From NCBI GenBank assembly GCA_035546615.1, contig DASZWM010000002.1, positions 15,460 through 79,459 on the forward strand: a DNA stretch of 64,000 nucleotides, read 5' to 3'. Position 1 is the first letter of the stretch; each line of letters opens with the position of its first letter. The notes beneath the pieces were generated by a model. The model did not search any database and was not told the DNA's origin. It worked only from the letters and a program-made list of their open reading frames with translations. Below are positions 10,266 to 59,241 of this stretch, piece by piece. The translations under genes and the position numbers were made by a program. Source of the DNA: Minisyncoccota bacterium (GTDB lineage: Bacteria; Patescibacteriota; Minisyncoccia; Phycocordibacterales; SBAW01).

Positions 10266-12749
10266 ATGGCTGACGACGAAACAAAGAAAGACCCCAAAGA
10301 CGGCCGCACTGACGGCGGCACCGGCATAGTCGGGCGCAACATCTCCACCGAGATGCGCGAGAGCTTCATCGACTACGCGATGTCGGTCATTACCGACCGC
10401 GCGCTTCCTGATGTGCGCGACGGATTGAAGCCCGTGCACCGCCGCATCCTCTACACCATGCATCGCCTGGGGCTCACGCCTTCGGCGCGCTTCCGCAAGT
10501 CGGCGCTCGTGGTGGGCGACGTGCTCGGCAAATACCATCCGCACGGCGACGCGTCCGTATACGACGCGATGGTAAAAATGGCGCAGGAGTTCTCCATGCG
10601 CTATCCGCTCGTGCTCGGCCAGGGCAACTTTGGTTCCGTGGACGGCGACTCGGCCGCCGCCATGCGCTACACCGAAGCGAAGATGTCCCGCATGGCGGAG
10701 CAGCTCCTCGGCGATATCGAAAAGGAAACTATCGACTGGCGCCCCAACTACGACGGCAGCCTCAAGGAGCCGGTGGTGCTTCCGGCCGCGGTGCCCAACA
10801 TTTTGCTTAACGGCACGCTCGGCATCGCTGTGGGTATGGCCACCTCTATCCCGCCGCACAACCTCACCGAGCTCTCAAACGCGCTCGTGCACCTTATTGA
10901 GAATCCCGAGGCGACGGTAGAGGACCTCATGCAGTTCGTCACCGGCCCCGACTTCCCAACAGGTGCGCTCGTATTTAATAAGAAGGACCTGCTCCACGCG
11001 TACACCACCGGCAAGGGCGGCGTGGTTACCCGCGGCGTTGCCGAAATTGTGGAGGGCAAGAAGGGCGACTATCAGATAGTCATTACCTCCATACCGTACC
11101 GCGTGAACAAGGCCGACATGATAATGCGCGTAGCCGACCTCGTGCACGAGAAGAAGCTCGAGGGCATCCGCGGCCTGCGCGACGAGTCCACCAAGGACAT
11201 CCGCATCGTAGTAGACCTGAAGCAGGGCGCGCATCCGCAGAAGGTGCTCAACTACCTCTACAAGCACACGGCGCTCGAGGACACGTTCCACTTCAACATG
11301 GTCGTGCTCGTGGACGGCGTGCCCCAGACCCTGTCGCTGAAGGGGATACTGCAGGAATTCATCAAGCACCGCCAGGACGTCGTGCGCCGCCGCACGCAGT
11401 ACGACCTTACGCAGGCGCAGGCCCGCGAGCATATATTGCTCGGCCTCAAGAAGGCGCTCGACCATATCGACGAGATAATCAAGCTCATCCGCGCATCCCG
11501 GGACGTGGCCGACGCACACGCAAACCTGATGAAGAAGTTCAAGTTCTCCGAACTGCAGGCGACCGCCATTCTTGAAATGCGCCTCCAGAAGCTCGCCAAC
11601 CTCGAGCGCAAGAAGATAGAGGACGAATTGAAAGAGGTTCAGGCCCTTATCGAAGAGCTCACGAGCCTGCTGAAGAGCGAAAAGAAGATGATGACGGTCA
11701 TCCGCGGCGAAATAGAGGACATCAACAAGAAATACGGCGACGAGCGCAACACCAAGGTGGTAAAGGGCGCGGCAGGCGTCATTAACGTCGAGGACCTCGT
11801 GCCCGACGAGGAGCAAGTGCTCGTGCTCACCCAGGGCGGCTATGTAAAGCGCACCAACCCCGACGAGTTCCGCAAGCAAAAGCGCGGCGGCGTGGGCGTC
11901 ATCGACCTCGATACCAAGGAGGAGGACTTCGTAACGAACTTCCTCACGACCTCGACGCACTCGGACCTGCTCTTTTTCACCAACGCGGGCAAGGCGTACC
12001 AGCTGAAGTTCTACGAGATCCCCGAAGGCAAGCGCTCCACCAAGGGCCGCCCTATTGTGAACTTCCTCTCCGTTACCCCCGAAGAGCGCGTTACCTCGGT
12101 GCTCCCTATGCGCAAGAACCAGAAGGAGGGCGAGAAATTCCTCTACATGATAACCAAGCAGGGCGTCGTGAAGAAATGCGACGCGACTGCCTTCCACGAT
12201 GTGCGCCGCTCCGGCCTCATCGCGCAGAAGCTCCAGAAGAACGACGAGCTCATCGCGGCACTCTTGGTGGAGAAGGGCGATGAAATATTCCTTTCGACCG
12301 CCAAGGGGCAGTCTATCCGCTTCAAGGAGTCCGACGTGCGCCCGATGGGCCGCGCGGCCGGAGGCGTGCGCGGCATGAAGCTCAGCGGCGGCGATACCAT
12401 CGTGGGTGCCGATGTGGTTAAGAAGGGAGTAAAGAACCAGGAAGTGCTCGTCATTTCACGCAACGGCTACGGCAAGACGACCGCGACCGAAGAATATAAG
12501 AACCAGAACCGCGGCGGCTCCGGCATCAAGACCATGAATATGACCCCCAAGACCGGCCCGCTTATCGCTGCGCGCATCATCACCAAGGAAGATGGCGTGG
12601 GTGAGGACGAGATCGTGGTCATATCTAAAAAAGGCCAGGTCATCCGCACCGAGCTTAAGGAGATCCCCAGCCTTTCCCGCAGCACGCAGGGCGTACGCGT
12701 TATGAAGCTCCGCGAAGGCGATGCGATAGCAAGCTTCGTTTGTCTATAG
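10266..12749 (+). CDS. gyrA: DNA gyrase subunit A
   Basis: [21 protein letters not shown] active-site region, the catalytic Tyr region [10 protein letters not shown], and C-terminal beta-pinwheel repeats. 827 aa. Confidence 0.95.
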
Positions 12750-12752
12750 GAT

Positions 12753-13346
12753 ATGGATACTACCACTCAGGCGTATCTTGAAATTCTGGAGAAAACAAAT
12801 CAGCAATTAAGTCTTTGGTATAACCCATATGGTCTAATGGTGGCAGTATTGACTGGCCTAGTAGCGGCACTTGCAATTGTTTTTGCTTTTATTTTATGGA
12901 GACAGCAGAAAGAATATAAAGATGCTTTTAAAGATTTTCTCGCTGAACGTAAAAAGTTCGCCAATAGTGAGATAGCAAAGGCAATAGTAGAAGCCGGAAA
13001 AGTGCTTGACGATAAAATTATAGAAGCGGACAAACAACTCAAAGATATAAAAGACTCAAGTAGCAAAACAAAAAAAGACATTGAGAAGGAAATTCAAGAA
13101 CTCAAAAAGTCCAGAGAATCTTTGCAGTCAGGTAGTGCGATTTTTCGTAGTGGAGGTGTGAGCGGCCCAATATATGGCACCGCTGCGAGTTCTATTTTGG
13201 GAGTAGCTTCTGGCGCGAATAGTACAACCGTTTGGGATCCAACTTCTAGTGTATTTAGTGCTGTTGGTAAAATATGTGGTTTTTGTGGAACTCAGAATTA
13301 TCCTGGCGCACAATTCTGTTTCTCTTGTGGGAACCCCCTTGGATAA
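12753..13346 (+). CDS. membrane-anchored coiled-coil protein with C-terminal zinc ribbon (AT-rich gene)
   Basis: One TM helix, a K/E-rich coiled coil, and a C-terminal CGFCGTQNYPGAQFCFSCGNPL C4 ribbon. Local GC is much lower than the flanks. Confidence 0.5.
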   Translation: MDTTTQAYLEILEKTNQQLSLWYNPYGLMVAVLTGLVAALAIVFAFILWRQQKEYKDAFKDFLAERKKFANSEIAKAIVEAGKVLDDKIIEADKQLKDIKDSSSKTKKDIEKEIQELKKSRESLQSGSAIFRSGGVSGPIYGTAASSILGVASGANSTTVWDPTSSVFSAVGKICGFCGTQNYPGAQFCFSCGNPLG

Positions 13347-13383
13347 AAAGTTCTTGTCTTCCTAGAAAGAATCTAATCACTAT

Positions 13384-14358
13384 ATGAAAATAAAGATTGA
13401 AGAATTGCGGCAATTAATGGTTAAAATTCTTGCGGGCAAGTATTACTCGCAGGAGGAGGCAGAAAAGATTGCCGAAGTTTTTCTTTATGCTGAATTGTCC
13501 GGTAAAAATACACAAGGAGTTCTTAAACTTCTTGGTTCTGAGCCGGCTCAAAATATACAGCCCAAGTATCTTCCTAAGATTATAAAAGAGACAAAAGTAT
13601 CTGCGCTTGTAGACGGAGGCGGAGCGGCCGGACCTTTGGCAGCTCAATTTGCACTAGATAAGGCGATTTCATTGGCTAAAGAGACTGGAGTAGGAATTGT
13701 GGGTTTAAACAATACTTTTTCTAGCGTAGGAGTTATGGGATTTTATGCTCGCAAGATGGCCCAAGCAAATCTGATAAGTATTGTGAGTGCAAGTTCACCC
13801 AGAGCAATTGTTCCTGCGGGAGGTATTGAGCCAGCTTTTGGCACAAACCCCATAGCATTTGGTTTCCCTACAGAAGAATATCCAATCGTTTTTGATATGG
13901 CGTCTTCGGCTATCACTTGGTATGGGCTTGTTCGTGCAAAAGCCCTTGGTCAAAAGCTACCCGAAAATGTCGCGATTGATAAAGAAGGAAACATAACAAC
14001 TGATCCTGAGGCGGCAATGGCTGGAGCTATTTTACCTTTTGATCGCTCTTACAAAGGTTCTGGGCTGGCTATGGTCGTTGAACTCTTAGCGGGAGCTTTT
14101 ACAGGTGCATCGGTTGTATTTGACGAAGGTGACTGGGGAACTTCCTTTATTGCCTTTAGTCCCGATCTTGTTATTGGCACTGAGCAATTCAAGAAAAAGT
14201 CCTCAGAGCTGGTAAAGAAAGTAAAAGCAGGCAAAACCAAAGCAGGAGAGAGCATACATATCGCCGGTTATGACAGCGAGGCAAAGCTAAAAGAGATCAA
14301 TGATTCAGGAGAGATAGAGATTGAAGATAAAATTCTCGATCAACTAAAGACTTTGTAA
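13384..14358 (+). CDS. Ldh_2 family (malate/L-lactate dehydrogenase type 2) oxidoreductase
   Basis: YKGSGLAMVVELLAGAFTG and IEPAFGTNPIAFGFP are characteristic of the Ldh_2 family. Confidence 0.65.
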   Translation: MKIKIEELRQLMVKILAGKYYSQEEAEKIAEVFLYAELSGKNTQGVLKLLGSEPAQNIQPKYLPKIIKETKVSALVDGGGAAGPLAAQFALDKAISLAKETGVGIVGLNNTFSSVGVMGFYARKMAQANLISIVSASSPRAIVPAGGIEPAFGTNPIAFGFPTEEYPIVFDMASSAITWYGLVRAKALGQKLPENVAIDKEGNITTDPEAAMAGAILPFDRSYKGSGLAMVVELLAGAFTGASVVFDEGDWGTSFIAFSPDLVIGTEQFKKKSSELVKKVKAGKTKAGESIHIAGYDSEAKLKEINDSGEIEIEDKILDQLKTL

Positions 14359-14365
14359 TAAGAAT

Positions 14366-14905
14366 ATGAAATTTGGGAACTTGAAATTTGCGCCTGCCAT
14401 TGAACACCCAGAACTTTTGGCTGCTCCTGTTGCTAGTGCACTTACGAGTTTGTCCATCGCTGATGTTGGTGTCGCAGAAATCGACCCAGCTCTCTCCGAC
14501 ACCGCAGCATTTTGCGAGAAGTACGCCGTTGTGCCTGCCCAGGCTGCTAATTGTGTAGTGCTTAAGTACAAAAAAGGCGAAGAGTCGGCCTTTGTCGCAT
14601 GCGTGATTTTGGCAACCACTCGTGCTGATGTGAACGGCCTGGTGCGCAAGGTACTCGACATCAAAAAGATTTCTTTTGCGCCCATGGAGGAAGCCGTGGC
14701 AGGAAGCTCGATGGAATTTGGAGCAATAACTCCTATCGGTTTACCAGCTAATTGGCCAATTTTAATAGACAAAGCCGTTGTCGATTCTCCTGGGGTTATA
14801 ATCGGGAGCGGAATTCGCAAATCTAAATTAGGTTTACCGGGCAGAGTTCTTGCTTCACTGCCGAACATACAAATACTTGAAGGGCTAGGTCAGGTAAAGA
14901 CATAA
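14366..14905 (+). CDS. YbaK/ProX-type aminoacyl-tRNA deacylase domain protein
   Basis: The fold pattern CVVLKYKKGEESAFVACVILATTRADVNGL...GAITPIGLP resembles Cys-tRNA(Pro) deacylases. Confidence 0.55.
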   Translation: MKFGNLKFAPAIEHPELLAAPVASALTSLSIADVGVAEIDPALSDTAAFCEKYAVVPAQAANCVVLKYKKGEESAFVACVILATTRADVNGLVRKVLDIKKISFAPMEEAVAGSSMEFGAITPIGLPANWPILIDKAVVDSPGVIIGSGIRKSKLGLPGRVLASLPNIQILEGLGQVKT

Positions 14906-54987: not shown

Positions 54988-55024
54988 GAAAAACATCCTT
55001 ACAAACTTGAGAATGTAAGGATGT
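54974..55024. terminator. bidirectional terminator hairpin containing one arm of the arsR-flanking inverted repeat
   Basis: AAAAACATCCTTACAaacttgagaaTGTAAGGATGTTTTT. Confidence 0.6.
54994..55016. repeat. 23-bp inverted repeat, arm A (flanks arsR)
   Basis: CATCCTTACAAACTTGAGAATGT is the exact reverse complement of 55338-55360. Confidence 0.85.
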
Positions 55025-55026
55025 TT

Positions 55027-55332
55027 TTAGAGATTCTGGAAGGATTTTAGGAAGCGGACGAATATCTTACCGTAGGGCGAAAGCCGGTGCTCCACGAACT
55101 TGCCGCGATACTTTTTTGCGATAAGGCCGGCCACATAGAGCCGCCTGGTGTGCTCGCCGATGGTCTTCTCGTTCGCATTAAGGGTCGCCGCAATAGTATC
55201 GAGCGTAACGCCCTCGTGCCGGGCGATAAGAAGCAGTATCTCGATGCGGTAATGATTTGCCATGCCCTTGAGATGGCGTTCCATCTGCTTTGCCGTCTTC
55301 GTATTTTTCATGCGGGAGAGTATACATGACAC
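55027..55332 (-). CDS. ArsR/SmtB-family winged-helix transcriptional regulator
   Basis: HTH NHYRIEILLLIARHEGVTLDTIAATL. Confidence 0.6.
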   Translation of the reverse strand: MSCILSRMKNTKTAKQMERHLKGMANHYRIEILLLIARHEGVTLDTIAATLNANEKTIGEHTRRLYVAGLIAKKYRGKFVEHRLSPYGKIFVRFLKSFQNL

Positions 55333-55337
55333 CCCAA

Positions 55338-55360
55338 CATTCTCAAGTTTGTAAGGATGT
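55338..55360. repeat. 23-bp inverted repeat, arm B (flanks arsR; putative operator)
   Basis: ACATTCTCAAGTTTGTAAGGATG, located 6 nt upstream of the arsR start codon. Confidence 0.85.
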
Positions 55361-55431: not shown

Positions 55432-55502
55432 TGCCCGATCGTCTAATGGTAGGACAGAGGCCTTTGAAGCCTTTAATTGGGGTTCGAATCCCTGTCGGGC
55501 AG
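55432..55502 (+). tRNA. tRNA-Gln (anticodon TTG)
   Basis: 71 nt: acceptor TGCCCGA/TCGGGCA, anticodon loop CTTTGAA, T-arm TGGGG-TTCGAAT-CCCTG. Confidence 0.8.
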
Positions 55503-55533
55503 CAAATGTAGCGAAGCGTAATTTGCGCCCGAA

Positions 55534-55656
55534 GGAAGCAATGGGATTGCTTCCGGCAGGGATTCGAAAGCCGGAGCGGGACCCGCATCAGCAGATGCGG
55601 GAGCGAGGCAGGGTCGTGCGGCTAAAGTTGCGACGGCAACTTTAGAACGCCTGACC
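55534..55656 (+). repeat. tRNA-associated structured repeat, long form (copy L3, downstream of tRNA-Gln)
   Basis: H1 GGAAGCAAT-GGG-ATTGCTTCC, GGCAGGGATTCGAAAGCCGGAGCGGG, a variable hairpin CCCGCATCagcaGATGCGGG, AGCGAGGCAGGGTCGTG, the hairpin AAAGTTGC-GACG-GCAACTTT, and AGAACGCCTGACC. This is followed by CGAATCCCT, a copy of the tRNA-Gln T-arm segment. Confidence 0.75.
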
Positions 55657-55726
55657 GAATCCCTAAGAAGTTTCTAGTTTTCTCTGTCTCTAGGCAGAAT
55701 CACTTTTTGATGGTAAATCTGTCCTG

Positions 55727-57400
55727 ATGCCGTATTCGACTGATATGTCAGTGTATTTAGATTTGGGCGGCGCTTTAGCTGCTTTTGGCCTTTTATTTAC
55801 TGTTTACCAACTTCGGCGACCAAGGTGGGAGGTAATTTTGCGAATTAGAAATAATTGGCAAAGTGATATTTTCTGGATATTAGGTTTTATAGGTTTGTTT
55901 TATGCCCTAGTTGGCGTGCTTGTATCTGAACTCCCAATTAATTCTTTCAACTTTCCGTTTAATACCCCATTACTTTACGAGGTGGCAGCGTACCTATCGT
56001 TTGTAGCTTCACCTCTGTCATTAATATATTTTGCGACCAATGACAAAAAGTTATTTAACGCAAAAACTGCAGAAACTTTCTACGAAGTAATCTTGCAAGA
56101 AATTTCTAAATCTAGTGATGTAAACCTAGATGCGGCATTGGAAATAGTCTTGAGAAACTTTAATGAAATTTGTGATGCAACTCTTCAAAATACAGATAAA
56201 GATTTGCGCTCATACGCAAGGTCAATTTTAGACGTTGTACTAAGTGACGAGTCTGTAGTAAAAGTGCTCACTACCAAGAGGCTTGATGCTTTGCAATATA
56301 TCTTTTATTTAATAAAGGAAAAGAATATCACTCGTGCTCATTCGGGGATAGGTATACCGAGAATTGTAAATAATCTTTTCTTTGACGAAAATTCCTTCCT
56401 CTATAAACAACTCGATAGAAAAGGGTTGGCACTTTCATCAAATATATACACGAGCATTTTTGAATCTCCAGTTATACTCACCAACTTTGATCTGTTTGGG
56501 TACCCGACTATCGGTTATGGAATGAGTAGAGATACTGGCAATGCTGGTATAAGAGTATTTATCAAAGCCTTATCTCTAAGCATTGAAACTTACTTTAAAA
56601 CAGGGAGCGTGCCTCCGAGGCACATTAATAATGGGTTGTCTTACTTAAGCAATATATTTGGAGGGTTGTGTGCAAAAATTGCCATCAAAGAAAATAAAGG
56701 TGTTGATACTAAATCTAGTTTAGAAGATGAGTGGTGGGGCTTACATCAAATAGCCTCCTTTTTAGGACATGATTATATTTTTCTTGCCTATGAAGAAAAA
56801 CTAAATCAGCAAGTTCTGGAAAACGAAAAAACTGCCCATGAGGCTCGATTTGGCTCAAATGCAACTATAAATGAGGGTATTGCAGCTGTTATCTATAAAG
56901 CTTTTGAGCAGCTTTCACAAATTAAAAAAACCACAGACATATATCATACAGTTCTGGAGCTCTTGCATGGAATGATGAATGAGCCTACCTACAAGGAAGG
57001 TTATAGACCGCCTTTTGAAAAGAGACTCTGGCAACAAATCGGTGCAAATGTTGCTAAACGTTATTATCCTGCCGTCGTTAGAACGTATTTAACCTTTGTT
57101 GGGTTCTGTCTTGGCGCAGATGCAAACCAACGACAAGGTTGGATTGGCGAACAAGCGGAACGTATGAGACGACTTTTGTATATTGACCTTAAGCCTTTAT
57201 TTGATAAGAATGAAAAAATGATAAATAAGGAATTTATGAAAGACGTTTTGCTCCCAGATTCCATGTCCTATAAAGATGGTAAATTTACTTATACCTCTGG
57301 ATTCGGAGAAGGTACAACCACTGAAGTAGCACCACCCCCTGAGGGTGCGACATCAGGTTTGGAAGGAATAGATTTAGAGAGTATGCCTCACTTCGTCTAG
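55727..57400 (+). CDS. large hypothetical membrane protein (3-4 N-terminal TM helices, about 440-aa soluble domain), AT-rich island
   Basis: Local GC is far below the genome average; no recognisable catalytic motif. Confidence 0.6.
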   Translation: MPYSTDMSVYLDLGGALAAFGLLFTVYQLRRPRWEVILRIRNNWQSDIFWILGFIGLFYALVGVLVSELPINSFNFPFNTPLLYEVAAYLSFVASPLSLIYFATNDKKLFNAKTAETFYEVILQEISKSSDVNLDAALEIVLRNFNEICDATLQNTDKDLRSYARSILDVVLSDESVVKVLTTKRLDALQYIFYLIKEKNITRAHSGIGIPRIVNNLFFDENSFLYKQLDRKGLALSSNIYTSIFESPVILTNFDLFGYPTIGYGMSRDTGNAGIRVFIKALSLSIETYFKTGSVPPRHINNGLSYLSNIFGGLCAKIAIKENKGVDTKSSLEDEWWGLHQIASFLGHDYIFLAYEEKLNQQVLENEKTAHEARFGSNATINEGIAAVIYKAFEQLSQIKKTTDIYHTVLELLHGMMNEPTYKEGYRPPFEKRLWQQIGANVAKRYYPAVVRTYLTFVGFCLGADANQRQGWIGEQAERMRRLLYIDLKPLFDKNEKMINKEFMKDVLLPDSMSYKDGKFTYTSGFGEGTTTEVAPPPEGATSGLEGIDLESMPHFV

Positions 57401-57402
57401 AT

Positions 57403-57960
57403 ATGAATCCAAACATTTGGTTTTACACTTTTAGTACAGCAGCCCAAGTAATGGCGGCTTTGGCCGGTTTATTTGCAGTATTTGTTGTATATAAGATTCA
57501 AGATTTTAGTCAGCTTATAAAAGACGCCCGCTCTAGTCTGTCCCGGTTGATTCCATACAATTCAGCGAATACGGGCGGAGATACAATCTCTAAGCAGGAA
57601 GTATTAGATATGACTGATAGAGAATTGGTTACTACGCTTGCCGAGTTGTTAGTACTTGAGACATCTCAGAATGGAGCGTTCTTTAGCGGACATTCAGAAA
57701 CTATAGATGGCACAACGATAGCTGTAAACTCGAATACCTACGACTATTTCGCAGCCCTTGTTGATAAAAAGGAAAGAATACTAAAACGTCTGATTTTTGT
57801 CTTGGGTTTAAGTTTAGGAACTATTTGTGTTTGTCTAGTATCATTGGTGCTAATTGACGTGTTATCAAAGTTTGAGTGGTTTATTTGGATGTGTTTGGCT
57901 TTATTTATATACACCCTTTGGACAATCGGAATGGATATTTACAAGATAACCCTAGAGTAA
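57403..57960 (+). CDS. hypothetical 3-TM membrane protein, AT-rich island
   Basis: Starts 3 nt after the previous stop; TM1 at the N-terminus and TM2-3 at the C-terminus flank a soluble loop. Confidence 0.55.
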   Translation: MNPNIWFYTFSTAAQVMAALAGLFAVFVVYKIQDFSQLIKDARSSLSRLIPYNSANTGGDTISKQEVLDMTDRELVTTLAELLVLETSQNGAFFSGHSETIDGTTIAVNSNTYDYFAALVDKKERILKRLIFVLGLSLGTICVCLVSLVLIDVLSKFEWFIWMCLALFIYTLWTIGMDIYKITLE

Positions 57961-57969
57961 TCTTTCTCT

Positions 57970-58293
57970 ATGAAAGGAATAATTATCGAAAATAGTCTCA
58001 AAGACAAAAGTATTATCACCGAAGCTGAAATTATTCGAACTTGGGAAGATGGAAGTTGGAAGTTGCGGGAGGTAAAAGTTTCAACAGAATGGGCTGAAAA
58101 ATTTGGAGGATACTTAAATGATGGACCCTGGTATGTTCACTTTTGGGAATCCGACAGCGACGATGTACTAGTAGTATTTAAAGACAAAAGCTTCTGGATC
58201 AAACATTCGGACAAGAATACTTGGCAAGATGCTATTGCTCATGGAAAGTCGTTACATATACCCGTGGAGCAATTAGACTTTCCTATTGATTGA
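57970..58293 (+). CDS. small soluble hypothetical protein, AT-rich island
   Basis: 107 aa; Trp-rich (WEDGSWKLREV, GPWYVHFWESD). Confidence 0.5.
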   Translation: MKGIIIENSLKDKSIITEAEIIRTWEDGSWKLREVKVSTEWAEKFGGYLNDGPWYVHFWESDSDDVLVVFKDKSFWIKHSDKNTWQDAIAHGKSLHIPVEQLDFPID

Positions 58294-58331
58294 GATTTCG
58301 ATTTCTCCCTTTTATATTATATAATCAAGAT

Positions 58332-58715
58332 ATGAAGTATTTGCTAATCACGGCTTTATTTTTGGTTGTCTTTGTGTTTGCTACTCCAGCAAAGGCCGCA
58401 CCATTAACCCAATCCCAAGTAAATGCAATAATTACTATTATGCAGTCTTTCGGTGTAGATAGTGCTACGATTTTAAATATCAAAACAACACTCTCTAATT
58501 CGACTTCCGCTAAGGTAGAATCCGTCGTCAAAACTACTTTTAAAGGAGTTCCTACCTACGCACAAGTGAAAAGAGAGTTAGCAAAATCACGCAATAAGGA
58601 GGTGACTTATATGGAGAATGGATGTGTATACTCAATAAACCATTTAGTGAGTGAACATATTTTCAAAACACGCGATATGAGTATTCGCGATCTTGCATCT
58701 GGAGCAAGTTGTTAG
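58332..58715 (+). CDS. small secreted hypothetical protein, AT-rich island
   Basis: Signal peptide MKYLLITALFLVVFVFATPAKA. Confidence 0.5.
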   Translation: MKYLLITALFLVVFVFATPAKAAPLTQSQVNAIITIMQSFGVDSATILNIKTTLSNSTSAKVESVVKTTFKGVPTYAQVKRELAKSRNKEVTYMENGCVYSINHLVSEHIFKTRDMSIRDLASGASC

Positions 58716-58758
58716 TGCTCCTTGGTGTATAAAGTTTAAAAATATAGTTAATCTTCTC

Positions 58759-59241
58759 TTACCCCCGTCGCGCCGCATCAATAGCGGCAACGTCGAGCTT
58801 TTTCATCGTCATCATCGCGTCAAACGCGCGTTTTGCCTCATCGCCGCCCTTGGCAAGTGCTTCGGTCAGCGTGCGCGGCGTTATTTGCCACGATACTCCC
58901 CAGCGGTCCTTGCACCAGCCGCACTCGCTCTCCTGGCCGCCGTTTCCGACGATGGCATTCCAGTAGCGGTCCGTCTCTTCCTGATCGTCCGTCGCTATCT
59001 GGAAGGAAAACGCCTCGCTTTGCTTGAAATACGAGCCGCCGTTAATGCCCATGCAAGGAATCCCGCAGACCGTGAACTCTACCGAGAGCACGTCGCCTTT
59101 CTTGCCCGACGGGAAATCGGCAGGCGCATGGAAGACGCCCGTTACCTTGCTGTCGGGGAACGTAGCGGCATAGAAATTCGCCGCCCCTTCCGCATCCTTA
59201 TCAAACCAGAGGCAAATAGTGTTTTTTGGTATCATATACAT
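58759..59241 (-). CDS. VOC-family protein (PhnB / 3-demethylubiquinone-9 3-methyltransferase-like domain)
   Basis: CLWFDKDAEGAANFYAATFPDSKV and WGVSWQI match the PhnB-like glyoxalase fold. Confidence 0.6.
   Translation of the reverse strand: MYMIPKNTICLWFDKDAEGAANFYAATFPDSKVTGVFHAPADFPSGKKGDVLSVEFTVCGIPCMGINGGSYFKQSEAFSFQIATDDQEETDRYWNAIVGNGGQESECGWCKDRWGVSWQITPRTLTEALAKGGDEAKRAFDAMMTMKKLDVAAIDAARRG

Follow-up and report, generated by a model that had tools for sequence, protein, structure and literature searches.

In the 64,000-nucleotide (nt) stretch of contig DASZWM010000002.1 analyzed here (referred to as the window), an islet rich in adenine and thymine (AT) was recognized at positions 55665-58720. 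It is a compositionally foreign insert beside a tRNA-Gln gene in a Paceibacterota genome, and it carries four genes, designated as A, B, C, and D. The islet is probably a horizontally acquired mosaic of four unrelated accessory genes, which occupies a variable slot between tRNA-Gln and a VOC-family gene, and is not a conserved system. The preliminary description of this locus had proposed that the four genes constitute one undescribed anti-phage, abortive-infection or toxin/immunity system. The genes and borders are listed below; TM stands for transmembrane, GC for guanine plus cytosine, and CPR for Candidate Phyla Radiation.

55525-55665, + strand: GC-rich structured repeat of host type, 3' of tRNA-Gln and outside the islet, forming the left border (fold z = -4.1)
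55727-57400, + strand: gene A, 557-residue membrane protein in which about 3 TM helices at the N-terminus precede a large solenoid domain of all-alpha type
57403-57960, + strand: gene B, 185-residue membrane protein with 3 TM segments, small CPR family
57970-58293, + strand: gene C, 107-residue acidic Trp-rich alpha/beta protein, large CPR family
58332-58715 (ATG start, 127 residues) or 58290-58715 (TTG start, 141 residues), + strand: gene D, secreted protein
58716-58758: right border, a 43-nt intergenic stretch between the stops of D and the VOC gene where GC returns to the host level

The mean GC content of the islet is 0.375, ranging from 0.34 to 0.425 in 400-nt windows, versus 0.581 with a standard deviation of 0.052 for the window outside it. 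The islet is thus about 4 standard deviations below its surroundings. GC at third codon positions (GC3) agrees, being 0.32-0.37 in genes A-D versus 0.57-0.72 in dnaX, 6PGL, VOC, and DAGK. The left GC break lies at around 55650-55665, just past the structured repeat, and the composition of the VOC gene is host-like right to its stop codon. The AT-rich island reported from the repeat on the tRNA-Gln side to the VOC gene is therefore real, and its four co-directional, tightly packed genes were likewise found, all on the + strand with gaps of 2 nt (A-B), 9 nt (B-C), and 38 nt from the ATG or -4 nt from the TTG start (C-D). The total cargo is 3.1 kb. The A, B, and C proteins correspond to the NCBI entries VHD55_00715, VHD55_00720, and VHD55_00725, respectively. 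As had been described, the islet is tRNA-adjacent and rich in membrane proteins, with TM segments in A and B and a signal peptide in D, and its proteins lack recognizable domains: no significant match was obtained for A-D in Pfam, NCBIfam, PHROGs or PADLOC. Sequence-profile searches of A, B, C, and D against PDB gave nothing under E 0.01.

The sharp GC change at both borders, in a sequence originating from a metagenome-assembled genome (MAG), could be produced by an assembly or binning artefact joining a low-GC fragment to a high-GC contig. This is extremely improbable. The Logan contig L001 (SRR12170516; loci outside the window are designated by L numbers), which comes from a separate assembly, has the identical sequence across both junctions, from tRNA and repeat to A and from D to VOC, and this makes a chimeric join unlikely. 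The slot is also variably filled in two relatives (L019 and L047), described later.

The co-occurrence of the four families was analyzed in other loci. A scan with peptide patterns of 185,579 species genomes, one per species, yielded 17 loci of A, of which 16 are full-length or cut by the contig end, and the remaining one (L018) is only a 100-residue C-terminal fragment. Together with 5 contexts from look-ups of the exact protein, the 16 make up the 21 A loci used below. The loci were picked by peptide patterns, with a bias to long contigs; the fractions given are therefore approximate. For C, the best 80 of 353 metagenome loci and L109 were analyzed (81 loci), and for B, 5 distinct contexts. 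L001 was left out of the counts, being the same sequence in another assembly. No homologue of B, C or D was found in the fetched flanks of the 21 A loci, no homologue of A, B or D in the 81 C loci, and no homologue of A, C or D in the 5 B contexts. The closest relatives of B (89% identical), C (80%), and A (62-64%) also have other neighbours. The families differ in size as well: at least 167 for A, 26 for B, more than 350 for C, and 1 for D.

The preliminary description had itself named the failure of the four genes to co-occur elsewhere as an outcome that would speak against its proposal, and no two of the families are neighbours in any of these contexts. It is very improbable that the genes form one co-functional undescribed anti-phage, abortive-infection or toxin/immunity operon. 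Their shared strand, gaps of 2-38 nt, and uniform GC would suit such an operon, as would the fact that three of the four proteins are membrane or secreted proteins and that A and B homologues are found in islands with restriction-modification (R-M) genes or integrases. Set against this are the lack of any adjacent pair of families, the very unequal family sizes, the position of C mostly beside NUDIX, HAM1, and histidine phosphatase genes, the orphan status of D with its ordinary secretion leader, and the lack of a PADLOC match. In PADLOC-DB v2, 0 families were hit by any of the four proteins at E ≤ 1, and no match to a known defence protein model was obtained. The toxin/immunity reading fared no better, as no conserved pairing of any two genes, whether as toxin-antitoxin or as toxin-immunity, was seen in the loci examined. 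Compared by neighbourhood, the quartet is not a conserved defence system, and its genes appear as unrelated passengers of an insertion hotspot.

Two other origins were rejected. Derivation from a prophage, phage or plasmid was discarded, as A-D have no relatives in IMG/VR, A has none in INPHARED or PLSDB, and PHROGs gave noise only. An integron-like cassette array was ruled out by the spacing of only 2-9 nt between genes and the lack of repeated sites.

The slot itself is delimited by the following features.

55432-55503, + strand: tRNA-Gln with anticodon TTG (ARAGORN; Rfam tRNA 60.7 bits), left anchor of the slot
58759-59241, - strand: VOC / 3-demethylubiquinone-9 3-methyltransferase-family gene (3-dmu-9_3-mt; Pfam PF06983, E 3.4e-48), right anchor, convergent
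55027-55332, - strand: 101-residue winged-helix (ArsR/MarR-like) regulator with a weak Pfam helix-turn-helix match (MarR, E 2e-4, below cut-off), used as a synteny marker

In 9 of the 80 C loci, the gene immediately upstream of C is a tRNA-Gln on the same strand. The same arrangement is seen for A in L007 and L010, and for B in L099/L100. A tRNA-Gln precedes A, B or C in 12 distinct loci other than the window; the 14 adjacency records include the window and the two copies of the B contig. Only 4 adjacencies with any other tRNA were observed. In L019, the tRNA-Gln is 96% identical to that of the window, and a C gene starts 5 nt after it. The nucleotide identity of this C gene is 76.6%, and the homology begins exactly at the ATG. 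The slot then continues with a Peptidase_S51 gene and small open reading frames (ORFs) until a VOC homologue, which is 75% identical to that of the window over 481 nt. The GC content of this genome is about 0.41. The order in L047 is an ArsR-like homologue, tRNA-Gln, C, an AT-rich ORF, and a glyoxalase. Like the window, L007 and L066 have dnaX in the vicinity. In L043, an intact tRNA-Gln (214-285) is followed 36 nt downstream by a 47-nt copy of its nucleotides 26-72 at 321-367 (94% identical), just before C, and a 20-nt copy of nucleotides 1-20 is present upstream at 148-167. These fragments resemble the traces that site-specific recombination within the tRNA would leave. Judged by gene order, these loci show that the 3' flank of tRNA-Gln in Paceibacterota and other CPR genomes is a hotspot where insertions recur.

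The two loci with tRNA-Gln followed by A, L007 and L010, also have the most similar recombinases (84% identical). They share the motif AGTCAGC(G/A)CAGTATCGAGG within the first ~45 nt after tRNA-Gln, which is not present in the window; it is possibly an attachment (att) half-site or a processing signal. Near the ArsR/MarR-like gene of the window, 25-nt inverted repeats (55000-55024 and 55329-55353, 88% complementary) bracket the gene. The same sequence, about 28 nt long, is found on either side of the homologous gene in L047 (1865-1892 and 2204-2231), and it is thus conserved across genomes. The repeats may serve as an operator pair or represent terminal repeats.

One family of large serine recombinases was found in this slot in relatives. 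Its members are about 440 residues long, have the Resolvase, Recombinase, and Zn_ribbon_recom domains, and are 54-84% identical to the protein of L010. The gene is convergent to its neighbour, and the two stops abut or overlap (0 to -4 nt; +14 in L011). The neighbour is A in L003, L007, L010, and L011, B in L100, and a C-terminally extended C in L026. On the 5' side of the recombinase, an R-M module is located: Type I HsdM/HsdS in L003 and L011, Type III Res/Mod in L007, a D12 methyltransferase and HNH in L010, and HsdM in L100, where the contig ends. Between L007 and L010, the recombinases are 84% identical and the A proteins 56%. A and the recombinase do not co-diverge, which fits module shuffling. 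In L004 and L009, fragments of the recombinase remain beside A, and in L070/L072 they lie between tRNA-Gln and C. These fragments beside surviving cargo mean that decay of the recombinase with survival of the cargo is seen directly in relatives.

These observations suggest a route by which the islet may have arisen. In relatives, the family of large serine recombinases, usually followed by Type I, II or III R-M modules, is located 3' of tRNA-Gln, A, B, and C are recurrent residents of the slot, and the recombinase decays while the adjoining cargo gene survives. The islet of the window would be what remains, with the recombinase lost, of one or more such insertions from low-GC CPR donors. Since the window has no recombinase, recombinase fragment, R-M gene or att repeat, this delivery route is drawn from relatives only.

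Several points weigh against this origin. The tblastn search with the serine recombinase of the relatives found neither a recombinase nor a fragment of it in the window. No R-M gene, att-like repeat or tRNA fragment is present in the islet or at its far border; at 58716-58758, there is no tRNA-Gln fragment and no direct repeat. Matches to the tRNA were limited to 9-12 nt, at the level of chance, and the 12-mer among them belongs to the host repeat. The GC contents of genes A-D are nearly equal (0.378-0.380), and the genes are on one strand with gaps of 2-38 nt; such uniform GC and packing would be expected of an operon or of a block acquired in a single transfer. In the relatives, there is no room for an att site between the cargo gene and the recombinase, and A, B, and C may be inside the mobile unit or just outside it. 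At the left border, the sequence 'CGAATCCCT' at the GC break was tried as an att remnant of the tRNA and rejected, as it is part of the multi-copy host repeat.

The uniformity and tight packing of the four genes lead to an alternative, in which the block was built in a low-GC relative and imported whole by homologous recombination in the flanks of the slot, with no site-specific recombinase involved. L019 is a relative of this kind, with the same flanks, a genome GC of ~0.41, and C in the slot, and the lack of att scars or a recombinase remnant in the window would also be explained. On the other hand, the right GC break is in the 43-nt intergenic stretch and not inside a conserved flank, and a host-specific repeat is located between the tRNA and A. 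The VOC gene is 75% identical to the only relative seen, which is too low for recombination with that donor, while recombinase-linked insertion at the slot is directly seen in relatives. Homologous import is considered unlikely, and one or more recombinase-linked insertions beside tRNA-Gln are preferred as the origin of the mosaic.

Gene A, the largest of the four, is the only one from a widespread family that is found beside R-M genes elsewhere. Its hydrophobic helices are at residues 13-28, 43-68, and 81-104, and a soluble domain follows. In the AlphaFold2 model (predicted local distance difference test score (pLDDT) 88.3, predicted template modelling score (pTM) 0.85), the helices 13-28, 32-40, 43-68, and 81-104 form the membrane part. 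About 20 helices then form a solenoid, and the model ends in a small C-terminal beta element. No specific fold match was found, and the search against the viral folds of BFVD gave only E ≥ 0.14. The family has at least 167 cluster representatives. Full-length identity is 48-65% for the best 120, and those of them with a source name are all annotated as hypothetical. No significant match in family libraries was obtained for 29 members of the family, and PADLOC gave only two isolated noise hits. The hosts include Nomura-, Kaiser-, Campbell-, and Magasanikbacteria, Saccharibacteria, other Paceibacterota, Eremiobacterota, and a Chlamydiales MAG. Clear homology to housekeeping membrane proteins, the other outcome named in advance as contrary to a new system, was not seen: the pattern scan detected A in 17 of the 185,579 species genomes, in scattered taxa and unrelated neighbourhoods. 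The broad, vertical, single-copy distribution with conserved synteny expected of a housekeeping membrane protein was not observed.

R-M genes are located within ~6 kb of A in 11 of the 21 loci (L003, L007, L010, L011, L013, L015, L016, L106, L107, L108, and L110; raw count). In about four or five loci, A is co-directional and just downstream of an R-M operon. It starts 5 nt past a Type III Res gene in L013 and 27 nt past HsdS in L108, in both cases in the same direction. In L110, it is 12 nt past a small ORF trailing Mod/Res/DUF5655, and in L106, 122 nt past a methyltransferase that itself follows HinfI and a GmrSD-like gene. NERD, DUF2726, DUF4238, GmrSD, and Fic are among the other neighbours. 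Integrases or their remnants are present in 9 of the 21 loci, including a tyrosine integrase at tRNA-Thr near A in L008. In nearly all loci, the AT content of A exceeds that of its flanks, and in L006 and L002 the gene forms an islet by itself.

Judged by its neighbourhoods, A would be a mobile, R-M-associated membrane protein. It may serve defence as a membrane sensor or effector that assists or backs up R-M, and its copy in the window has no R-M partner. The family is a reasonable candidate for a defence-associated membrane protein. No mobile or defence neighbour was identified in L006, L014, L017, and L111. No motif or known fold pointing to a specific activity was found in A, and the proposed role is drawn from gene neighbourhoods. 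The mobile and defence context supposed for the islet holds for the homologues of A and, more weakly, for those of B, near which integrases and R-M genes are found elsewhere; in the window, the islet contains no R-M gene, integrase or known defence gene. Separately, Fic/DOC genes were observed in or beside the A-linked R-M modules of 4 of the 21 loci (L011 734-1792, L013 521-1423, L015 1111-2013, and L108 2281-3366).

The B family has 26 homologues. Residues 4-36 are near-invariant, and the rest of the protein falls to ~30% identity in the family. The near-invariant sequence IWFYTFSTAAQVMAALxGLFAVFVVYKIQDF corresponds to the first TM helix. Codon identity in this N-terminal region is 92-94% at positions 1 and 2, and 42% at position 3. 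The free variation at third codon positions points to selection at the protein level, and conservation as a DNA-level site such as att is ruled out. The N-terminal motifs of A and B look alike, and a common N-terminal TM module was rejected with the hhalign probability of 0.6%. B is present in R-M or recombinase settings in 2 of the 5 contexts (raw count): in L103, it follows AAA_13, a methyltransferase, and DpnII, and in L100, it is between tRNA-Gln and the serine recombinase.

The C protein is acidic, with 6.5% Trp, and its model (pLDDT 95.7) is a small alpha/beta protein for which no convincing structural relative was found. The family includes 128 cluster representatives and 353 confirmed metagenome loci, and 30 of its members gave no significant match in the family libraries. 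C is located in many unrelated settings, and its neighbours are mostly varied small enzymes (NUDIX, HAM1/ITPase, and histidine phosphatase, and also alpha/beta hydrolase and SET), and known defence genes are mostly not nearby in this raw survey. C is predicted to be a small soluble CPR accessory protein. Some ORFs of this family, as called mechanically, are longer by ~95 residues (201-204 residues; L026 4241-4846, L024 5998-6612, and L023 1663-2277). In L026, the extended ORF and the serine recombinase gene overlap at their stops, and farther on the element has ParB-like and other phage- or plasmid-like genes.

The D protein starts with a signal peptide that ends in AKA/AP, according to hydropathy. 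When searched at full length among 1.84 billion representatives, its sole match was itself. Residues ~15-75, which include the signal peptide and a module, match the N-termini of many secreted PG_binding_1/TIG proteins. The recurring leader-like module of ~35 residues has the pattern LTxSQ(V/I)xAIxSLLQSFGADxxT, or, in another form, LTQSQVNAIxxxxQSFGxDxxT; no Pfam model covers it. The C-terminal half of D is an orphan. D is thus predicted to be a Sec-secreted envelope protein. Up to 8 stretches of D match inside one giant protein (P0268, 3216 residues), of which the best aligns residues 79-111 of D.

The structured repeat at the left border is one of 3 copies in the window, each ~85-140 nt long and immediately 3' of a tRNA gene (Gln, Cys, and Tyr). 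The other copies are as follows.

~24315-24436, - strand: structured repeat immediately 3' of tRNA-Cys
~32011-32095, - strand: structured repeat immediately 3' of tRNA-Tyr

The invariant core of the repeat is AAGCCGGAGCGGG...GGGAGCGAGGCAGGGTCGTG. Among the 3 copies, 10 of the 42 predicted pairs of the hairpins show compensatory change. The repeat was not seen in the fetched loci of other genomes, and identification of the spacer after tRNA-Gln as a known RNA was rejected, as Rfam gave no match. A second AT-rich islet (GC 0.38-0.43) is located at 12700-14400, right after gyrA; it encodes a 197-residue TM/coiled-coil protein, whose C-terminus carries a zinc ribbon, and a 324-residue dehydrogenase of the Ldh_2 family. 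AT-rich islets are thus not unique to the tRNA-Gln slot in the window.

The failure of the four genes as a new system is useful to know before the cassette is cloned. CPR bacteria, or Patescibacteria, mostly do not have CRISPR and lean on R-M systems. The A family, being well conserved, confidently modelled, and located beside Type I, II, and III R-M systems, is a candidate layer of CPR defence or DNA handling. The repeated use of the 3' side of tRNA-Gln by one serine recombinase family offers a handle on the exchange of accessory genes in these tiny genomes. Only tentatively can it be proposed that the A family represents a so far undescribed type of R-M-associated membrane protein for defence or exclusion, which integrase-borne islands have carried through CPR and, on occasion, to other phyla, and that the tRNA-Gln slot and its serine recombinase may make up a modular platform swapping R-M modules and small accessory genes (A, B, and C). 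The R-M link of the A family and the tRNA-Gln platform are tentative, being deduced only from neighbourhoods in a limited sample selected by pattern.

Among known systems, R-M-linked back-up abortive infection is provided by PrrC, whose gene lies within the EcoprrI hsd locus, and by RloC; both are soluble anticodon nucleases with an ABC-ATPase. A resembles them as a single accessory gene in or trailing R-M operons (L013, L108, L110, and L106). Unlike them, A is an all-alpha protein with 3 TM helices and no nuclease or NTPase motif, and shows no similarity to them in sequence or fold; the analogy is one of position only. Membrane-anchored single-gene abortive-infection or superinfection-exclusion proteins have an N-terminal TM anchor and a cytoplasmic domain and are carried on mobile elements. 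A shares with them the TM anchor with a cytoplasmic domain, the association with mobile elements, and the lack of an enzymatic motif, but it has no match in PADLOC or PHROGs and no relatives in phage or viral collections.

Large serine recombinases include the phage integrases of the phiC31/Bxb1 type, CcrAB of SCCmec, and TnpX. The recombinase of the relatives has the Resolvase, Recombinase, and Zn_ribbon_recom architecture that defines this group, and its occurrence with varying cargo at a single site of many genomes is reminiscent of SCC-type cassette chromosomes. The window differs in having no such recombinase, and the att sites, excision, and target specificity in the relatives are only putative. 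Large serine recombinases are not classically known to target tRNA genes.

In overall layout, the islet resembles tRNA-linked genomic islands and integration hotspots. It shares with them a deviant composition, a tRNA-adjacent position, a slot filled differently in relatives, cargo mostly of unknown function, and the presence of R-M systems and integrases in the same slot in relatives. It differs in having no integrase and no flanking direct repeats, and in consisting of 3.1 kb of cargo only. A literature search found Patescibacteria genomic islands with R-M, and nothing on this hotspot or these families. The reported islands include one with a Type I R-M system (PMC12455944). That report does not mention tRNA genes or targets or recombinases, and the link between tRNA-Gln and the serine recombinase is thus not described there. 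The locus of the window, with neither integrase nor att repeats, is of an ordinary kind: a small tRNA-linked islet in an integration hotspot.

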